Source: Candidatus Heimdallarchaeum aukensis
GTDB taxonomy: Archaea; Asgardarchaeota; Heimdallarchaeia; Heimdallarchaeales; Heimdallarchaeaceae
Direction: 5' to 3'
Assembly: GCA_021513695.1 (NCBI GenBank)
Contig: CP084166.1
Location: 2,176,001-2,240,000 of the forward strand
Length of the DNA: 64,000 nucleotides
The translations under genes were made by a program, and so were the position numbers. The notes beneath the pieces were generated by a model. It was not told where the DNA came from. It was given only the letters and a program-made list of their open reading frames with translations, and did no database searches. Of this stretch, positions 3,415 through 62,734 are shown in pieces; within the stretch, counting starts at the first letter, position 1, and each line of letters starts with the position of its first letter.

Positions 3415-4863
3415 CTAAAAAGCATCTGTGTAAAGTTTTTCTAATTTTACGATAAAATCAGACCCACTAGGATAATTGTCTTGAAGAAAAATTTCTCCTC
3501 CAAAAGTATCTAAAGTTATTTTGATGAGGAAAAGGTTCATACCCCCTTTGTATAATCTCTTTTTATAATCTCTATGAAAAATTTCTTTTTTTTCTTTACT
3601 TGGTATTCCAATACCGTTATCCTTCACATGTACGAAAACATAGTTTTCTTTTTCCTCAACTTCAATCCAAACTTTAGCATTCTCTCCCGCATGGTGAACT
3701 GCGTTGCTTATTAACCCATAAAAAACAGAAAAAAGGAATTTATTTGCTTTTACAAAGATTTCTTTGTCCAATCCATACACGCACACATTTTCGAAAGCTA
3801 CTGCTGCAGCTTGTAAAACTTTTAGACTTATTGGTTTAATTTTGTCATCTACTAAAAATCCTTCTACAGCACCGATGTTAAATATTTTCTCTCTCATTTT
3901 TTTAATTCTATCAATTATCATCTCTTTAAACATAGAATCATTAGATTCAGAAAACATTTCTATGGCCGTCTCTATTACTGCAAGATCATTACGTAAATCT
4001 TGTTTCATTACATTAGTAAATGTTACAAGTTGTTTATTTACTCTATCAAGTTCCTCATAAAGCAAACGATATTGCTGTCTTTCTTGAATTATAGCAGAGA
4101 CCGTTTTAAAATTTAGGATATTTTGTTTAGATAAGATAATCCCTATTAGAATTGTACCTAAATATAAAAGATTGAATCCCCTGTAAATTTGCAAAAATAT
4201 CTCTCTTTGAAAGATTAAATACTTGAAAAAATAATAATCGCTAACAGTGAGCATAAGGTATGAAATAATCAAAAGCCCCCAATAATTTTGAGATCTCTTT
4301 GAATATATTGTAAAAAGAATTAAGAGGAGAATAAAAAAGGTAAAATCAAAAACCAAGAAAACTAGTAAAATGAATAGATCAAATTTTATTAGATGGTTGT
4401 TAGAAGCTATTTGAGAAAAATTGTTAACAATTTGAACAAAAAAGTCAAGGTATTGAACACTTAACAATAAACCGATAAAAATAGTCATCAATATTTGCTC
4501 ATAAAGATTTTTAAAATCATTCACGATTTGCTGGAAAATGATGAATAAAACTGGTATATAGCTAATGAATAAAATAGAATTCGCTAAAGAAAAAGAAATA
4601 GAATTAGCAAAAATTGAACTAATGATGAGAGAAACTTGAGAAAGCAAAACAAAAAACATAGACATTCCCAAAGCTTTAACAAAAATTTTCAGATTTCTAT
4701 CATGTATTCTTTTTGTAGAAAGACCAAGAACGCAAGCAGTACAAGAAATTACTAGGGTGCTTAGAAACAAAATACAATTTCCAACATTTTTTTTAAAAAT
4801 GGCGCTTAAAACAGCAATAGTATAAAGTAATGAACTTATTATCAGTATAGTGATGCGTTTCAT
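3415..4863 (-). CDS. Membrane-bound sensor histidine kinase
   Basis: The 482-aa ORF has about 8 N-terminal TM helices, a coiled-coil/DHp-like segment and a C-terminal HATPase_c (LISNAVHHAG...VKDNGIGIP...GGMNLFLIK...GGEIFL). Confidence 0.7.
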   Translation of the reverse strand: MKRITILIISSLLYTIAVLSAIFKKNVGNCILFLSTLVISCTACVLGLSTKRIHDRNLKIFVKALGMSMFFVLLSQVSLIISSIFANSISFSLANSILFISYIPVLFIIFQQIVNDFKNLYEQILMTIFIGLLLSVQYLDFFVQIVNNFSQIASNNHLIKFDLFILLVFLVFDFTFFILLLILFTIYSKRSQNYWGLLIISYLMLTVSDYYFFKYLIFQREIFLQIYRGFNLLYLGTILIGIILSKQNILNFKTVSAIIQERQQYRLLYEELDRVNKQLVTFTNVMKQDLRNDLAVIETAIEMFSESNDSMFKEMIIDRIKKMREKIFNIGAVEGFLVDDKIKPISLKVLQAAAVAFENVCVYGLDKEIFVKANKFLFSVFYGLISNAVHHAGENAKVWIEVEEKENYVFVHVKDNGIGIPSKEKKEIFHRDYKKRLYKGGMNLFLIKITLDTFGGEIFLQDNYPSGSDFIVKLEKLYTDAF

Positions 4864-5292
4864 ACTATCATTTTGTATTCAATTTGGATTTTAATAGTCA
4901 AATAACTAAATAAAGTTACTGCTCTAAATTGAGAAAAAATAGACTATTGAGTTCAAATAAACTACTAATGGTACTTTTACCTTCTTTTTTTCTGTTGATA
5001 AACACTTTTTAGTCTAGTAAGGAATAAATTACTACTGAGTAAAAAGAAGACTCAAAGAATCTTATTATTAAAGAATTATCGCTGAATTAACTGAATTTTT
5101 TCAATAAATCTTAGATGTTTTGTTACAGGAAATTAGAAAATACACTACTATAGTACTATTTGCTTTAATTGAAAAATTCTCTATTATATAATTAAATCCA
5201 TTGAAACGATAAAGTGAACATAGTGAGGAGCAGAAGTAAAGAATTTGTTGTTTTTTAAAATACTTTAAATATTTATATTACTATTATGAATT

Positions 5293-5454
5293 ATGACCTT
5301 AGAGGTAATCGCTGTTCGTTTACCAGAAAAAATTGTTTCAAGATTAGACCTCCTAGTTTCTCAAAAAGGATATACCTCTCGTGGAGAAATTATACGCGAT
5401 GCTCTACGTTATTACTATATTAATCACTTTTCCAAAAAAAATGAAGAGAAATAA
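5293..5454 (+). CDS. Ribbon-helix-helix (CopG/NikR-like) small DNA-binding protein
   Basis: The ORF track's 60-aa cutoff hides a 53-aa ORF, MTLEVIAVRLPEKIVSRLDLLVSQKGYTSRGEIIRDALRYYYINHFSKKNEEK. It shows the classic RHH pattern: a beta-strand (IAVRLPE), helix A (RLDLLV), G, helix B (RGEIIRDALR). Confidence 0.45.
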   Translation: MTLEVIAVRLPEKIVSRLDLLVSQKGYTSRGEIIRDALRYYYINHFSKKNEEK

Positions 5455-5495
5455 AATTAATGTTAATTTTATTCTCGAACTTTTGCATTGTATTT

Positions 5496-6749
5496 TTATT
5501 TTGAGCCTAAGAACTTAGCCTTTTCTCCTAATTGTTCTTCTATTCTTAAAAGTTGGTTATATTTTGCAGTTCGTTCTCCTCTTGCCGGAGCACCAGTTTT
5601 TATTCTTTCTGCGCGAATAGCGACAGATAGATCGGCAATAAAAGTATCTTCTGTTTCTCCAGACCTGTGACTTATATTAATTCCCCAACCATCACTTCTT
5701 GCTAACTCTGCTGCCTTAATTGCTTCTGTTAAAGAGCCTATTTGATTGACTTTTAATAACAAATAATTAGCAGCTTTCTCTTTAATTGCCATCTTAATAC
5801 GTTCAGGATTTGTCACAGTTAGATCATCAGCAACTATTGATATTGATGGATGTTTTTTCAAAAGCTCTGCAAAAGATGTAAAGTCATTTTCATCGAATGG
5901 ATCTTCTAAGGATATAAGAGGATACTTTGTAATTAGTTCGCTATAGTAATCAATAAGTTCATCACTTGGGATTTTCTTTCCATCAATTTCATATAGACCA
6001 TTTTCATAAAACTCTGAAGCTGCAGCATCAAGACCTAGTGAGATTTCAGTTTTTGGTTCATATCCAGATTCTTCAATAGCTTTAATTAACATATCAATGG
6101 CTTCTGGTGCAGTATCAACAGGACTACCAAAACCTCCTTCATCACCCAAATTTATTGCTGATGGACCAAACTTTTTCAAATTCTTTTTTAGTGTTTGATA
6201 TACTTCACAAGATGAACGGAGAGCTTCTCGGAAACTTTTAAAACCATGAGGAATAAGCATGAATTCTTGTATCTTTAAGTTTCCCCCAGCATGTTTTCCT
6301 CCATTAATTACATTTAACATTGGAACAGGTAAAGTATATGCTTCACTGTTTAATGATTTATAAAGAGGTAACTTTTTACTATTGGCTGCTGCTACAGCAA
6401 CGGCTAGTGATACTCCCAAAATAGCGTTTGCACCTAATTTTGATTTGTTTGGTGTTCCATCAAGTTCTAACATTAACTTATCTATCTCTTCTTGTTTTGT
6501 GACTTCATAACCAATAATTTTTGGAGTAATGATCTCTTTAATATTGTTTATGGCTTTTAAAACTCCTTTTCCATGAAAACGGGAATCTTTATCTCTCAAC
6601 TCAAGAGCTTCATGTTCTCCAGTAGACGCACCCGATGGTACTTTAGCTCTTCCAAAAGCTCCGTTGTCACAATATATATCTACTTCAACAGTGGGGTTTC
6701 CACGGGAATCAATTATTTCTCTAGCAATAATTCTTTCAATTTTTGACAT
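5496..6749 (-). CDS. eno: Enolase (phosphopyruvate hydratase)
   Basis: The 417-aa ORF starts [24 protein letters not shown]... and contains SHRSGETED and [13 protein letters not shown], which are canonical enolase motifs. Confidence 0.95.
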
Positions 6750-17700: not shown

Positions 17701-18970
17701 TTCAAAAGGTGAAATGTTAAGCATTAGAGACCCAAGAGTAAAACTTTATTTTCCAAGTTTTTCAAAATACCATACTGATGCTTTAAGTAAAGTCTTTAGT
17801 CTCCTAGGTTATAATACAGGTAAAGTTACAGATATTAGACTAGATTATCCTGTAACTGGATTACAGTACAGTTCTGGAAAAGAATGCATACCTCTGGCGG
17901 TTGTTTTAGGACATATTTTGCATTTAGTTAAACAAAGAAAGCCAGGAGAAGTAATAGGCTATTATATGATCAGAGGTGGGTCACCTTGTGCTGTTTATAG
18001 TTACTTCCATTATATTGAGCGATTTCTGAAAGAAAATAAGATAGAAGATGTATTTGTTTTCAGATTTGACTACCTTACAAACTTTATGGATACTAGTTTA
18101 TTGGATGTCATGCGTTACTTTCCACAAACACTCATAATTGCTGATTTGATGAATGAGATAGAAAGTGCTCTTCATGTGGTAGGGGATGAGAAAGGTTTAG
18201 AACAATTACATAGTTATTGGAAAGAATATCTAACAGAAGCCAATACGTTAAAGAAATACAAAAAACTTGTTCCTAAACTAGTGGAAAAAATAGCCAGTAT
18301 TGAACGCAAGGGAGATCCTAAAACTTATTCAAAAGTACTAATAAGTGGAGATTTTTATGTTCGTTTTAGTCCATTTTTCATTGGAGAACTAAGGGATATG
18401 TATAAAGTACATGACATTATTGTGAAATCGCATGATCTGTGGGAACTTGTTCTTTATAGTGTTTACAGCACAAAAATAGCTATTGCACAACGATGGAAAA
18501 AAGGTCCAAATAAATTTTCAACCTTAATATATGCATTTTCGAAAATATTTGACAAAAGGGCGCAAACTTATCTTCTCTGCATTTTCTCTATTCCACTACT
18601 TGAATGGATTGAAAAGAGACAACGAAAGGCATTTAGAAAAACGGGTTTACTATACGCTGGTGTTAATAAATTAAAACCCATTTTCCGCTTCTCGAAACCA
18701 TATATCAGTCCATTAATTGTCGGAGAAGCAATACCTACTGTAGGAAAAGGAATCGAAACATTAACACATAATGGGTATGATTCTTTAATTTTAACAGGTC
18801 CAATGAATTGTTTGCCTTATAAAGTCTCTCAAGCAATATTAAAGCCAATATTTCTGGAGAACAGAGTACCTTTCTTAGTCTTTGATGTGGACATCTCTTC
18901 TATGTCAACAAACATGAAACGTTTAGTGCATGCAAATATAGAACAGATAAAAAAGAGAAATATAAATTAG
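14783..18970 (+). CDS. Giant fusion protein: two BadF/BadG/BcrA/BcrD-type ATPase (HgdC-like activase) domains plus a 2-hydroxyacyl-CoA dehydratase-like (HgdB/DUF2229-like) C-terminal module
   Basis: The 1395-aa ORF has a first ATPase domain (GINIGSVSVNFVFVD...DKCAAGSGEFF) and a second (LGVDVGSTTTKAVL...SCSAGTGSFLEE...FFQGGVAKN), then a Cys cluster (CKACNNYCQ...GGRCSRYE). The long C-terminal region has dehydratase-component-like topology. Confidence 0.6.
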   Translation: MLANVGINIGSVSVNFVFVDTDGTIHKCKKPHMGKPQEVLTEIIKENIPESKKCAFATSGSFGNISEIAAIERGLKSYPDEKFDIVLSLGGESFVLYVIDEENNIVNILSHDKCAAGSGEFFLQQIGRLGLSLNEAIERAKNGKKIQLASRCSVHCKSDITHKLNKGEASIDDILTSVLSSMVNKVLHLIMQSRVNVKRLLVIGGVTLNDTFVQLLREELPDVDVVIKDVSSVFEAYGASLMVSDNPLSFPNKPVLKTEKSFATLPPLKEFREQVTIIEPKPPKTDFDESTIFVLGVDVGSTTTKAVLMDYSDNEIVASYYGRTQGNPVNAAKKCITEIIKQVGNQRVQLIGVTGSGRQIVGAYLGTPAIYNEISAHSTGAVHFDDEVDTIFEIGGQDSKYMLIKNGVPIDYAMNASCSAGTGSFLEECSKGDLGISVYDIASVAMQAENPVRFKADCAAFINSDIRTALQEGYSRTDIVGGLVYSIVNNYVEKVKGSREVGKKIFFQGGVAKNTSVGYAFAQATGKHIIIPPNPELVGAFGVALIAKEKYELNEIGLMPENTSLEHLIKEEMKHLGHFICKACNNYCQIERYEVGGRRFPFGGRCSRYEHQWRRTEKIKEKEDLVQKRNDLIFENVIEETKTNTNTEKIGIPRALLTHSLFPLYSTFFKEIGFEVVLSSIDEEKELLTNAPFCYPVQILHGAVNDLIKKGIKLIFLPHIRSLPKNKSWFDSTFCPITQGSSYYIPTTFSPVEILNPVLDFEEGYEYDTSLVDYVVKKLGIPKSKANRAYIHAVKKQKKVEQQFIEWGKEALKKLDETNETAIVLVGRSYNAFPPETSQLIPKKLASMGVTVIPFDFLEKVESEEDIPWYFINYINIAADLVQKKKNLFLLYITNFSCTIDGFNQQLVRTKMKSKPYLILELDAHTADAGTQTRLEAFLEIIKNYRAVEKQEEEKEFKVCQVKRRNGKTVVFTSKGEMLSIRDPRVKLYFPSFSKYHTDALSKVFSLLGYNTGKVTDIRLDYPVTGLQYSSGKECIPLAVVLGHILHLVKQRKPGEVIGYYMIRGGSPCAVYSYFHYIERFLKENKIEDVFVFRFDYLTNFMDTSLLDVMRYFPQTLIIADLMNEIESALHVVGDEKGLEQLHSYWKEYLTEANTLKKYKKLVPKLVEKIASIERKGDPKTYSKVLISGDFYVRFSPFFIGELRDMYKVHDIIVKSHDLWELVLYSVYSTKIAIAQRWKKGPNKFSTLIYAFSKIFDKRAQTYLLCIFSIPLLEWIEKRQRKAFRKTGLLYAGVNKLKPIFRFSKPYISPLIVGEAIPTVGKGIETLTHNGYDSLILTGPMNCLPYKVSQAILKPIFLENRVPFLVFDVDISSMSTNMKRLVHANIEQIKKRNIN

Positions 18971-19189
18971 TTTACTCTTTTAAAGAAGAAGGTTCCTTTT
19001 TTTCATTTTTTTTAACGAATTGCATAATATACTTTTTTACGCCAAAAGCTAAACTTTTTAGTTAGTGGATGTATTAGGCCAATAGCAGGCCAAAAGCACA
19101 TTTGAATGAATAAAAAATACATTGAATATTGGGTGAGTGGCACAACTTTTCCGCGGTTTTTATATACACAATTCTCATTTATCTGTTGT

Positions 19190-19316
19190 CTTGAGCTAGA
19201 TGCTTAAAGACGTAGGTTATCTGTCCTACGACACCCGGTCTTCCCTCTGGGAGTGATGAGTGTCCGGGATCAGGAGATGAAGCCGTTAGGGAATACTATT
19301 ACAGACTGTGTCTTTG
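19190..19316. ncRNA. Candidate structured ncRNA: a GC-rich island in an AT-rich convergent intergenic region, preceded by a TATA-like box
   Basis: A TTTTATATA box at about 19158-19167 lies about 25 bp upstream. The segment is locally above 50% GC, with hairpins CGTAGG...CCTACG and CCCGG...CCGGG. It has no coding potential. The strand is unresolved. Confidence 0.25.
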
Positions 19317-19407
19317 TGTTCTCTTAGCCCAGTCCTCACAAATATCTAAATGTTTGTTGACTGGTCGGGTAGAGTCCTGAAGAAATTACGTAAAATTTCA
19401 ACTCATA
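19317..19407. repeat. Copy 1 of a duplicated ~90-nt noncoding element (the second copy is at 47893-47980)
   Basis: tgttctcttaGCCCAGTCCTCACAA...GGGTAGAGTCCTGAAGAAAtTACgTAAAATTTCAACTCATA is about 80% identical to 47893-47980 across about 90 nt. Indels break any shared reading frame. Confidence 0.5.
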
Positions 19408-19543: not shown

Positions 19544-21340
19544 TTATAGAAGATAAAATTCAGTAGCCCAAAGGATTCCATTATCATCCTCAATATAGGT
19601 ATACTTTATGTTGTCACCCACATCTGTTAAAACAACATCGTTCCAGTGAGTCTCATTTAAATAGTCTCTAGAACAACGGATTGTTCGACTATCATTCAGA
19701 GAAAAAACAAAAATGCTATTGCCGTCCTTAACATAAGTTCCTACTTTTTCAACTTGAGCGTAATTATAAATTTCCTCTGGTTTGTTTCCTGAAAAGAAAG
19801 ATTTGTAAGTCAATCTTGCTTCTTTTACTGCCTCTGAACCTGTTAATCCTTCAGCATTGGTTATGGCAATATAACTTGTTTCCTTTGCATCTAAAATACA
19901 TATGTGTGATAACCTTTGAACTGTTCCACTTTCCCAGTAAATGGGAATGAACCAAACTAGTCTATTACCTAGAGAAGTATTTAATGTGAATGGAACTGGC
20001 ATTTGGACAATGTAACTTCCTTCATTAGGAACAGTTAACTGGCCTTTTGCAATTTGAGCTGCAGTACTAGCAGAAATAAACCCTTCATTGCGTAAATCAT
20101 AAAAAGTAACATTTGTTTTTGTAACTACTCCAATTCCTGCAAGAGTTTCAGGAGCGTTAAGAGGGTGAGTTGCAAAAAAAGCGAAACTTGAGTTTTTACG
20201 AAAAACATAACGTATATCTTCCACTCCTTCACCATAGAAGCCAATTCTATCAGGACTATAATTAGGAAAACCGCTGAATAATCTTATATTGTCAGGAGCA
20301 CTAAGGTCTCTTTTAATACCCCATTTTTTGATCCAGTAATCTTCTAGAAGAGTTTCAGAGTAAACTTGGAGAACATAGTCAGGTGTTTGCCCAAGTTCTT
20401 CTGGTCCATAATGCTTAATTAAATCTCCTGTTCTTATATCAACTATATCAACACCATCAGAATACCAAGCCCCATAAATGTTACGTGTGGTACGTGTGAC
20501 AACATAAACCCACTTTTCTCCAGTCCAAGCGGGATATGAGCGATAATATTTAGCAGTTTGACTTCTGCGATAAGATTTAAGGTTGACATTATGGTTACGC
20601 CAAAGATCCTCTGCGTAATTGAAGGTTCCATCAGGAAATTCAATAATAATGGGCTCGGCATTGGGATTATTTACGTCGATGAGAATTAAACCTAAAACCT
20701 TATTGAACAAACCCGGTTGCCAAAATTGCGCACTAAATCGAGGGGCGTAAACAATACACCAATAAAGTGTATTATTAACTAGGATTACGTTAGCTTGGAT
20801 ATACATAACATTTGAGCCAAAGATGGCTTTATTTTGTTCAGCTCGGCTAATAGCAAATTCTTTTGTGACTAATCTTATAGAGTTATCTATTTCTCTAACT
20901 TCATCTGAAACAATAAACGGTAGGGTTGAATATTCTACTGTTACCATCTCTTCAAAAGTTCGTGCACTTTGAAGTGTCTTGTTGATATTTAATAAAGAGT
21001 TTAGCAAAATTACCGTAATAATAATAAAAACAAGAGCAGAAGTAATTTTTTTCCTAAATCTTCTACGAGTAGTCAATTCGTTTATTATTTTTCCAGTAAA
21101 GAGTTCAAAGATAATAACGAGTATAATGTTGATCGTTCCTACAAGGATTAAATGCTCGATTGCTCCTGCATATATTGTCCTAGCAATAAAACCAAAAACC
21201 CAAACAAAAAACAACAAAATACAATAAAAACCTATGGCCATTCCTCCAAGTGTGCTATTCTTCTTGTAAAGACGAACGACTATCCAAAGTAAAGGAAGAT
21301 AAGCTAAAAAAAGTAAAAGCGTTATACCAATATATGACAT
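19544..21340 (-). CDS. Large membrane protein (N-terminal TM bundle plus a large extracytoplasmic domain), function unknown
   Basis: The 598-aa ORF has about 4-5 N-terminal TM helices and a roughly 450-aa soluble C-terminal region. No recognisable catalytic motif was seen. Confidence 0.4.
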   Translation of the reverse strand: MSYIGITLLLFLAYLPLLWIVVRLYKKNSTLGGMAIGFYCILLFFVWVFGFIARTIYAGAIEHLILVGTINIILVIIFELFTGKIINELTTRRRFRKKITSALVFIIITVILLNSLLNINKTLQSARTFEEMVTVEYSTLPFIVSDEVREIDNSIRLVTKEFAISRAEQNKAIFGSNVMYIQANVILVNNTLYWCIVYAPRFSAQFWQPGLFNKVLGLILIDVNNPNAEPIIIEFPDGTFNYAEDLWRNHNVNLKSYRRSQTAKYYRSYPAWTGEKWVYVVTRTTRNIYGAWYSDGVDIVDIRTGDLIKHYGPEELGQTPDYVLQVYSETLLEDYWIKKWGIKRDLSAPDNIRLFSGFPNYSPDRIGFYGEGVEDIRYVFRKNSSFAFFATHPLNAPETLAGIGVVTKTNVTFYDLRNEGFISASTAAQIAKGQLTVPNEGSYIVQMPVPFTLNTSLGNRLVWFIPIYWESGTVQRLSHICILDAKETSYIAITNAEGLTGSEAVKEARLTYKSFFSGNKPEEIYNYAQVEKVGTYVKDGNSIFVFSLNDSRTIRCSRDYLNETHWNDVVLTDVGDNIKYTYIEDDNGILWATEFYLL

Positions 21341-24202: not shown

Positions 24203-24320
24203 GCCGCGATAGCTTAGTCGGTAGAGCATTCGGCTGTTAATCTTAAGATTTGAATGCACTACGGGTGCGCAAGAGCAGCGCACCGAAAGGTCGTAGGTTC
24301 GAGTCCTACTCGCGGCGCCA
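24203..24320 (+). tRNA. tRNA-Asn(GUU) with a canonical 37/38 intron of about 42 nt and encoded CCA
   Basis: Acceptor GCCGCGA/TCGCGGC, D-arm GCTT-AGTCGGTA-GAGC, anticodon stem TTCGG/CCGAA, loop CTGTTA|intron|A, T-arm GTAGG-TTCGAGT-CCTAC, then G-CCA. Confidence 0.75.
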
Positions 24321-28749: not shown

Positions 28750-28859
28750 TGGTGGACTGGGGGGGATTTTCAGATTCAGCGCACACAGCGCCGGAAAATC
28801 TATTGAACCCCCGGCCTCTTCGGTGCAAGCGAAGCGTTCTTCCTCTGAACTACCAGCCC
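28750..28859 (-). tRNA. tRNA-Ala(UGC) with the G3:U70 identity pair, a roughly 35-nt intron in the T-loop and encoded CCA
   Basis: Reverse complement: GGGCTGG-TA-GTTC-AGAGGAA-GAAC-G-CTTCG-CTTGCAC-CGAAG-AGGCC-GGGGG-TTCAA[TAGATTTTCCGGCGCTGTGTGCGCTGAATCTGAAA]AT-CCCCC-CCAGTCC-A-CCA. G3 pairs with T70. Confidence 0.7.
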
Positions 28860-29236
28860 ACGCCTTGTTTTTGTTTTCTATTCTTTAAACACTTTGTGTT
28901 AATTATCTTTTTTTTGTTCCTTTTTTTAAACTTTCGATTTGTAGCATCAATTTGATTTTTGTACTTTTTTTGAATACAATGCTCGCACTTGGATGAGTTC
29001 AGAGGAAAAAAATACCTATTATTGAGCAAGAGGTAATGATTGAGTTCTTCTTGACAACAGAAATCAGAAACAATTGGTGTTTCTTCTAATATAGGAAAGG
29101 AAGATGAGAAGTTTGAGAATTAAAGAGTGGAAGCGAGTTTTTTTATTTTTTAAAAGAAATACTATGAGGTTGTCAAGTCATTGATAGCCTTAAACCAACA
29201 TTTTTTGATTCTTTTTCTTATTAGTCTTATTATTTT

Positions 29237-30256: not shown

Positions 30257-30377
30257 TGGAGCCCTGGGCGTGATTTGAACACGCGACAACTGGATTGCTG
30301 CACAAGTGCTGAAACAATTTAGTTTTTCAGCGTTTTTGGTTCTTCAGTCCAGCGCTCTCCCGCTAAGCTACCAGGGC
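30257..30377 (-). tRNA. tRNA-Phe(GAA) with a roughly 46-nt intron at 37/38 and encoded CCA
   Basis: Reverse complement: GCCCTGG-TA-GCTT-AGCGGGA-GAGC-G-CTGGA-CTGAAG[intron]A-TCCAG-TTGTC-GCGTG-TTCAAAT-CACGC-CCAGGGC-T-CCA. Confidence 0.75.
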
Positions 30378-47788: not shown

Positions 47789-47892
47789 CCTCTTTTTTTA
47801 CTCTTTTATTTTGATAATTTAAATATAATTCCTTTATTCGAATTGTTTTTTTCTCTTACTACAAAAGAAAAAAGTAGTTATAATGTTTACAT

Positions 47893-47980
47893 GTTCTCTT
47901 AATTCAGTCCTCACAATCGTATCGATGTGTTGGCTGGTTGGGTAGAGTCCTGAAGAAACTACTTAAAATTTCAACTCATA
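47893..47980. repeat. Copy 2 of the duplicated ~90-nt noncoding element (see 19317-19407)
   Basis: About 80% identity to 19317-19407. It lies about 60 bp upstream of the small tail-anchored protein gene. Confidence 0.5.
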
Positions 47981-48042
47981 GTGTAGCTCAAGACAGCATC
48001 TCAGAAAAAAGTTTTTGTATTTCAGTGTATTTGCTAACAATA

Positions 48043-62425: not shown

Positions 62426-62734
<309 letters not shown>

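Follow-up and report, generated by a model that had tools for sequence, protein, structure and literature searches.

What occupies the gap between two convergent genes in the genome of Candidatus Heimdallarchaeum aukensis, an Asgard archaeon whose closed genome measures 3.08 Mb? The window analyzed here is a stretch of 64,000 nucleotides of this genome (contig CP084166.1, positions 2,176,001 to 2,240,000), and all coordinates without a contig name are positions in it. The original prediction read a G+C-rich island at 19195-19316 within the gap as an unannotated stable RNA gene, preceded by a TATA-like box and followed by a duplicated 90-nt element. A structured non-coding RNA with its own promoter remains the predicted content of the island. 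The stand-alone, single-copy gene does not; instead the island is part of one copy of a mobile repeat. The repeat unit is mobile, since it is dispersed, differs in presence and absence between sister genomes, and interrupts genes. Very probably, this mobile element carries a conserved, predicted RNA gene. The best explanation overall, with a rough probability of 0.6, is a non-autonomous transposon resembling palindrome-associated transposable elements (PATEs) and miniature inverted-repeat transposable elements (or MITEs), which carries its own RNA gene, possibly for a guide RNA. The components of the unit are arranged in the window as follows.

19023-19406, plus strand: complete repeat unit, about 384 bp, with CAT at the junctions 19023-25 and 19404-06
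19026-19065, plus strand: left end, terminal AATATAC, then near-terminal palindromes TTTTTTACGCCAAAAG and CTAAAC-TTTTTAG
19066-19136, plus strand: AT-rich variable spacer, with hairpin GGCCAATAGCAGGCC at 19077-19091
19141-19166, plus strand: promoter region, with conserved box CACAACTTTTC at 19141-51 and TATA-like box TTTTTATATA at 19157-66
19188-19406, plus strand: predicted structured-RNA module, about 220 nt, ten helices, reaching the last base of the unit; the G+C-rich island 19195-19316 lies in its 5′ part

How widely is this unit distributed? It is present at no fewer than 15 other sites. Copies aligning end to end with the window unit at 81-85% identity occur in H. endolithica (L009 and L011-L015) and on metagenome contigs (L016-L023 and L028). 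A 19-mer from the 90-nt element has seven occurrences in the H. endolithica chromosome; six of them are complete units, 81-84% identical to about 19020-19406 of the window, and the seventh is truncated where the stored stretch ends. Eight further copies on JGI metagenome contigs were detected with a 26-nt pattern from the 5′ end of the island, and the L028 copy was found via a spurious open reading frame (ORF) call. The flanks of the copies are all different, except for L011 and L016, which represent one locus in two strains. In every complete copy the island and the 90-nt element are contiguous, and therefore they are two parts of one unit. The duplicate adjoining the island was correctly recognized (19317-19407 and 47892-47980 share 84% identity by blastn), but it is the 3′ part of one segment with the island and not a separate element. 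Conservation in relatives is strong, though not at the syntenic site. Pattern scans of the virus database IMG/VR did not find the family, blastn was likewise empty, and a viral, plasmid or phage origin was rejected for lack of a match in these searches. As far as seen, the family is specific to Heimdallarchaeum and Heimdallarchaeaceae.

At the locus itself the filled and the empty states of the site can be compared directly. The gap is flanked by genes for the proteins UJG40122.1 and UJG40123.1, whose convergent ends were read correctly from the beginning and are confirmed by ORF calls.

ends at 18970, plus strand: upstream ORF, 1395 aa, fused acyl-CoA dehydratase activase
ends at 19544, minus strand: downstream ORF, 598 aa, without Pfam domain

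The intergenic gap measures 573 bp in H. aukensis versus 181 bp in H. endolithica (L003) and on endolithica-like contigs of metagenome-assembled genomes (MAGs; L005-L008). L003, L005, and L007 lack the unit in their orthologous gap. In the gap alignment, homology extends on the left to about 19011-19022 and begins again on the right from about 19410, with about 385 bp extra in H. aukensis. On four aukensis-like metagenome contigs (L029-L032) the site is filled, and this filled site differs from the window by three substitutions and one 1-nt deletion. The alternative offered with the original prediction, that the island belongs to the 3′ untranslated region of the 1395-aa gene, is ruled out because the sequence is an insertion absent from sister genomes. 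Two short-read contigs carrying the 598-aa gene (L001 and L002) end exactly inside the right end of the unit; assemblies from short reads are broken by this repeat.

Two copies in H. endolithica have interrupted genes. In L013 (1173-2481) the unit splits a gene of the TauE/SafE sulfite-exporter family into ORFs of 172 aa and 90 aa. With the unit removed and one CAT kept, an ORF of 309 aa appears, and its junction ARFHYPWLKPF (HYPW) is the same as in intact orthologues. Orthologues are intact in a sister MAG (97% identity) and in H. aukensis (88%), and so this gene was disrupted recently. A 9-bp inverted repeat of the gene (AAGGTTTCA...TGAAACCTT) surrounds the insertion point, which falls in its loop. 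In L014 the unit is inserted 4 nt after the ATG of tnpA in an IS605-type insertion sequence (IS). This element (3900-5884) is richer in G+C, with its left-end hairpin upstream of the unit and intact-looking tnpA and tnpB downstream. Homologous TnpA proteins have 132 aa and start with MPxGY, and restoration of the ATG and MPxGY in L014 requires that one CAT be left. Here, tnpA is inactivated by the insertion. The interrupted IS seems to be single-copy by sequence comparison, because the protein database holds just one near-identical TnpA, namely the truncated call made on this very copy, and the next relative reaches 74% identity. Its right end adjoins a MazG-like ORF. Kinship of the unit with this IS605 element was rejected, as their ends are unrelated and the unit is merely inserted into the IS.

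The junctions share a short sequence. Each of the two reconstructed empty sites (L013 and L014) has one CAT. At filled sites, CAT is found on the right in 13 of 13 cases and on the left in 13 of 15, with GAT in L017 and AAT in L023. No target duplication longer than 3 nt was detected in 12 site pairs, and CAT is the only sequence common to the 12 reconstructed sites. Such junctions agree with the IS200/IS605 scheme, in which one motif is adjacent to the transposon and one is encoded by it: an element ending in TCAT would insert 3′ of a short target motif. The ends of the family can be written as CAT/GAGATAC...TTTCAACTCAT, where the slash marks the left junction. The left-end consensus is CAT followed by (G/A)A(G/A)ATAC and then by the palindrome TTTTTTACGTAAAAAA, which most copies have in place of the TTTTTTACGCCAAAAG of the window copy; subfamily 1 additionally has AACTAAATTTTTAGTT. 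At the right end the hairpin GAAATTACGTAAAATTTC stands 7 nt from the end and is followed by the terminal AACTCAT. Compared with the right end in reverse complement, the left end agrees at 16 of 21 positions (ATGAG-N10-ACGTAA, read from the consensus), and this match is partly due to the self-complementary palindromes. Judged by sequence, the ends can be read as same-strand near-terminal palindromes or as an imperfect inverted repeat.

Which part of the unit has been maintained during its divergence? Between the two subfamilies the island is the best-conserved part, with identity of 0.87 for 19187-19316, 0.80 for 19317-19407, 0.65 for the left end, and only 0.41 for the spacer, which is effectively unalignable. 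The unit has no conserved reading frame, and single-base indels between copies break every frame, in agreement with the lack of coding potential noticed earlier. The local G+C richness is also real: the island has 49.2% G+C and the window mean is 32.4%. Only 0.35% of 122-nt segments in the window are as rich as the island, and the others correspond to four tRNA genes and one 5S-like island. Since all other islands of such G+C content in the window are structural-RNA genes, we count this composition as an RNA-gene signature. Both short hairpins exist. The arms CGTAGG (19211-16) and CCTACG (19225-30) are 8 nt apart, as first described; CCCGG (19234-38) and CCGGG (19264-68) are separated by 25 nt and not by the 23 nt given before.

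The TATA-like box is present where it was expected, at 19157-19166. Its core TTATA(T/C)A lies at a fixed distance from the conserved block in 15 of 15 aligned copies from both subfamilies, and its center is about 26 nt upstream of G19188, the exact start of this block. Such spacing from TATA box to start is normal archaeal promoter geometry. The 221-nt segment 19187-19407 folds on the plus strand with a minimum free energy (MFE) of -71.4 kcal/mol (z -3.48; none of 200 shuffles as good), whereas the minus strand gave a z of -1.46. The L012 copy gave z -3.54. The island alone (19185-19345) is unremarkable, with z -1.0 on both strands, and the whole segment is stable; the island coordinates therefore cut the molecule in two. 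The RNAalifold consensus contains ten helices in total, comprising P1-P3 in the island, two long-range helices, three internal hairpins, and the right-end hairpin. Its principal parts are these.

19188-96/19202-11, plus strand: predicted helix P1
19212-16/19225-29, plus strand: predicted helix P2
19234-38/19264-68, plus strand: predicted helix P3, with inner stem 19240-45/19249-53
island to 90-nt element, plus strand: predicted long-range helices AGGA/UCCU and CCC/GGG, with 5′ strands in the island
19317-19406, plus strand: 3′ part of the RNA module, with GUUCUCU (pairing with 19288-94) and the GGG and UCCU that close the long-range helices
19329-38/19355-64, plus strand: variable hairpin in the 3′ part of the RNA module
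19382-87/19394-99, plus strand: right-end hairpin GAAAUU/AAUUUC, followed by AACTCAT

Standard pairs make up 98.3% of the pair cells in the alignment, and 37 G-U cells would be A-C mismatches if read on the opposite strand. The motifs GACA, GAUGAA, and AGAG are invariant and unpaired. Together, promoter geometry and modelled structure strongly indicate that the TATA box would drive rightward transcription of an RNA of about 220 nt with many helices (19188-19406), the most conserved part of the unit and predicted to fold on the plus strand only. Between 19188 and 19406 there is no run of five or more T; the first T runs come 45-65 nt past the unit. With no oligo-T terminator inside the unit, transcripts are expected to continue into the host flank. 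One further detail concerns AUGAGU at 19256-61, in the internal loop of P3. It is the perfect complement of the last six bases of the unit, ACUCAU (19401-06), with which it is paired in the window MFE structure, and it is identical to the left-end terminus. In L018, the sole informative copy, no covariation of this pairing was detected. In the model this pair could be a pseudoknot or a switch hiding the 3′ end, or else a recognition site shared with the ends.

Does the predicted molecule belong to a described RNA family? The original prediction had found no convincing likeness to the RNAs of the signal recognition particle (SRP) and RNase P or to C/D box small RNAs (sRNAs), and this held: zero Rfam families reached the gathering threshold in the gap, and matches at E <= 10 were at chance level. 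The best match in the island was Ocean-VII, whose 18.5 bits fall short of the threshold of 53.5; in another copy it scored 13 bits. SRP RNA, RNase P RNA, and C/D or H/ACA sRNAs were rejected for this lack of an Rfam match. Some other candidates were considered as well. The sequence GUGAUGA (19253-59) resembles a C box, but it is GUUAUGA in most copies, and there is no CUGA D box at the required downstream spacing. A kink-turn at GAUGAA/UAGAG was rejected after inspection by hand (columns 86-98 and 182-193), the loop being off the canonical register. A coding remnant of the TnpB C-terminus was likewise rejected: frame 2 of the island consensus stays open over about 38 codons, and indels break it in several copies. 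A bulge-helix-bulge (BHB) or self-splicing intron was also rejected. An IS110-type bridge RNA was dismissed because of target diversity, the 12 sites having only CAT in common.

Among known systems, the nearest archaeal class for the unit is that of the PATEs. PATEs, MITEs, and small mobile repeats of archaea have been defined earlier, the PATEs by near-terminal palindromes, absence of target duplication, and derivation from IS605-type elements (PMC3119063). PATEs often encode omega RNAs, which are necessarily used in trans by TnpB (10.1101/2023.03.14.532601). Like PATEs of the IS200/IS605 and IS1341 type (PMC3119063; 10.1101/2023.03.14.532601), the unit is of non-coding length, multi-copy, and insertion-polymorphic, and it nests in other mobile elements (IS605). 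Both of its ends bear near-terminal palindromes on one and the same strand, and long target duplications are lacking; on the left it is flanked by a short conserved oligonucleotide (CAT), to which its right terminus (TCAT) is similar, and a predicted structured RNA fills its right part up to the right boundary, where the omega RNA sits. In contrast to PATEs, its ends also form an inverted repeat, its putative target motif has only 3 nt, its predicted RNA has its own TATA promoter and is not processed from a tnpB transcript, and this RNA lacks similarity to the sotRNA families of Rfam. Furthermore, neither an IS605-type parent with the same ends nor a TnpB partner was found in about 0.25-0.3 Mb.

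The inverted-repeat character of the ends fits MITEs or small mobile repeats instead. The unit shares with MITEs and with the small mobile repeats of Haloquadratum (PMC3119063) a length of a few hundred bp, non-coding sequence, terminal inverted repeats (TIRs), dispersal, and insertion into genes and other mobile elements. The interior of a MITE is normally filler, whereas the unit contains a promoter and a segment of about 220 nt which is more constrained than the ends; a related transposase-encoding IS was not found in loci of about 0.25 Mb. The bridge RNA or seekRNA of IS110/IS1111 elements offers another comparison, as it is also a structured RNA in a non-coding end, with no conventional target duplication and a short core sequence at both junctions. 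However, IS110 targets share at least 10 specific bases and the sites of the unit share only CAT, the unit has no DEDD recombinase gene, and we saw no match between its internal loops and the flanks.

How could such a unit move? It has no transposase, its ends are palindromic, there is little or no target duplication, and the structured RNA lies at the right end and probably runs into the flank; these properties, which together are those of IS200/IS605-type PATEs carrying an omega (TnpB-type) guide RNA, led us to propose a guide RNA. The unit would be mobilized in trans, and its RNA would serve as guide or scaffold for a nuclease or recombinase whose gene lies at another place in the genome. 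The guide itself would be the flank-derived 3′ tail of the transcript, and use of the RNA would help the element to be retained or copied. We put this mechanism forward tentatively, and its chances are clearly below even. A bolder version is very doubtful, namely a selfish element with a guide RNA as its only gene, self-promoted, transcribed out into the host flank and hijacking an RNA-guided nuclease or recombinase, with a fold unrelated to described omega or bridge RNA. If this were true, the archaeal lineage nearest to eukaryotes would possess a mobile-element system of a new, RNA-guided kind.

Several observations weigh against the explanation of the unit as a transposon with its own, possibly guiding, RNA. 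Neither beside any copy nor in the roughly 0.25-0.3 Mb searched did we find a gene for a transposase or a TnpB-like protein with related ends. The only elements of this kind that we found, the IS605 of L014 and a TnpB fragment of L010, have right ends unrelated to the unit. A fuzzy TIR search of the loci of about 0.25 Mb and of the window recovered only the unit's own ends. Rfam models of omega, sotRNA, and HEARO were absent at E <= 10 in the gap and at E <= 5 in L012, and a database search with the island peptide detected no TnpB tail, but only spurious ORF calls on other copies. The CAT pattern fits a duplication of 3 bp, or of 2 bp (AT), since mutated, equally well, and with ends that are also an inverted repeat the unit could just as well be a classical TIR element. 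Covariation is thin, with double changes in 2 of 56 pairs, both in the variable hairpin (CG to AU in three copies, GC to AU in one), because the copies are about 91% identical in the RNA part. Variable columns do avoid the stems (26 of 112 paired versus 58 of 111 unpaired columns; Fisher p 9e-6), which favors an RNA, but this test is partly circular, as the structure was predicted from the tested sequences. Finally, the orthologous copy in close strains has two substitutions and one deletion at RNA positions that are otherwise invariant, and for this reason the copy at this locus may be decaying.

A rival explanation is an ordinary MITE of TIR type, moved by a DDE transposase and having no functional RNA. 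In such an element the conserved core would be cis-acting DNA, for transposase binding or for a single-stranded or cruciform state, or just young sequence, and the TATA box would be incidental or an outward promoter. The short, non-coding, multi-copy unit with its imperfect inverted repeat agrees with this, as do the weak covariation and the single CAT of the empty sites against CAT on both sides of filled sites, a possible 3-bp target duplication. Yet a core that keeps identity of 0.87 between subfamilies whose spacers cannot be aligned, together with a TATA box at fixed distance in all aligned copies, is poorly explained. Folding and G-U pairs both differ between the strands in a way that indicates a single-stranded molecule of the plus strand, variable columns avoid stems, the left GAT beside right CAT in L017 and the left AAT in L023 are a poor fit to perfect duplication, and an IS with the TIRs of the unit was not found in the loci of about 0.25 Mb. 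We consider the ordinary MITE unlikely. The promoter and the conserved structured RNA would also agree with dispersed genes for a host regulatory small RNA, derived from a domesticated or short-interspersed-element-like mobile sequence and acting on targets of the host in trans or on the neighboring gene in cis. Several copies are intergenic beside gene starts or ends, and the invariant unpaired GACA, GAUGAA, and AGAG might be sites of interaction. But disruption of the TauE and tnpA genes is selfish behavior, presence at one locus varies between sister species, the neighbors share no type or orientation, and decayed and truncated copies occur, all of which makes this explanation distinctly unlikely.

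Two further explanations can be largely set aside. An intron-like element, removed from transcripts by self-splicing or BHB splicing, would make insertion into genes harmless, and both insertions within genes are in fact oriented as the gene, with the frame restored by precise removal. Restoration of the frame is, however, expected of any recent insertion, and most copies are intergenic. Models of group I and group II introns gave no match, and the ends, which pair as two helices of 5 bp and 10 bp with a 6x6 internal loop between them, do not form a BHB motif; this origin is highly improbable. The G+C-rich hairpins, the upstream TATA box, and the C-box-like GUGAUGA could suggest a single-copy housekeeping RNA gene native to the gap (SRP, RNase P, C/D or H/ACA). 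Such a gene has next to no probability: in addition to the sub-threshold Ocean-VII score, the altered C box, and the missing D box described above, the sequence is multi-copy and absent from the orthologous site of sister genomes, which refutes it.

The best-ranked account thus remains a non-autonomous transposon with an RNA as cargo, the fold of which is undescribed. Why has this family escaped notice? The Heimdallarchaeum genome paper catalogued repeats of at least 100 bp at an identity of at least 95% and listed only transposase and integrase families (PMC8813620); with about 82% identity, the family was missed by this catalogue. It is not treated in a 2026 survey of archaeal IS (PMC13343696), and our literature search met with no account of either the repeat or the RNA. 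The closed genomes of Heimdallarchaeum serve as references for the group of archaea placed closest to eukaryotes. A promoter-driven structured RNA as the most constrained part of a transposon suggests unannotated RNA-dependent transposon biology in Asgard archaea, for example guide RNAs used in trans. The family gives a concrete RNA for metatranscriptome searches and a bait for a protein partner. It also has consequences for annotation, because it inactivates genes (TauE, tnpA) and yields spurious ORF calls, such as the database "proteins" P0148 and P0149 on island copies.

Some copies of the unit are incomplete. In the L028 copy at 4988-5170, about 37 nt are deleted from within the RNA module. 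The window contains a second, truncated copy.

47892-47979, plus strand: truncated second copy, restricted to the 3′ 90 nt of the RNA module, with sharp alignment edges

With nhmmer this copy corresponds to model positions 127-220 (E 1e-21), and no further diverged copies were detected in the window, where nhmmer returned 19187-19406 and 47888-47979 and nothing else. Directly after it lies TAGCTCAAGACAGCA (47984-47998); in reverse complement this sequence equals the 12-15 nt with which the RNA module begins (TGTTGTCTTGAGCTA, 19184-98). This is followed by CAGAAAAAAGTTTTTG (about 48005-48020), which resembles the reverse complement of the CACAACTTTTCAG box. The stretch 47984-48020 looks like a decayed second unit in opposite orientation, hit by the truncated copy at the CAT of its own P1 loop. 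If the guide-RNA proposal is true, the flank-derived "guide" of the copy at 47892 would be complementary to the family's own 5′ end.

Other RNA genes of the window deserve mention. The only other G+C island outside tRNA genes lies at 62454-62672, and its minus strand reads as 5S rRNA with the halves swapped.

62498-62618, minus strand: candidate permuted 5S rRNA, with flanking stems at about 62455-62665

Here, 5S positions of about 48-117 (62618-62549) come first, then a UUCG loop closing helix I, then positions 1-47 (62544-62498). Rfam gave two sub-threshold 5S matches in swapped order, of 25.2 and 13.6 bits. The rejoined sequence of 117 nt folds into the canonical three-way junction. At the termini a 4-bp helix CAGG/CCUG has AAA bulges on opposite strands, a BHB-like arrangement that suggests excision and ligation which would rebuild loop C; the predicted junction joins GAACCUGA to AAGUUAAGCC. 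On the basis of this model, 62498-62618 is a candidate for a circularly permuted 5S rRNA gene. Four related contigs from Heimdallarchaeaceae MAGs carry it with 99.6% identity. According to the genome paper, 5S rRNA was not predictable in Heimdallarchaeum genomes (PMC8813620). Permuted or circular archaeal 5S rRNA was absent from the literature that we searched.

The tRNA genes of the window were called differently by the two programs. A tRNA-Ala at 28786-28860 (minus strand) was called by ARAGORN and is absent from the Rfam gathering scan. Rfam tRNA matches at 24203-24317 (plus strand, 115 nt) and 30260-30377 (minus strand, 118 nt), not called by ARAGORN, are probably intron-containing tRNA genes.

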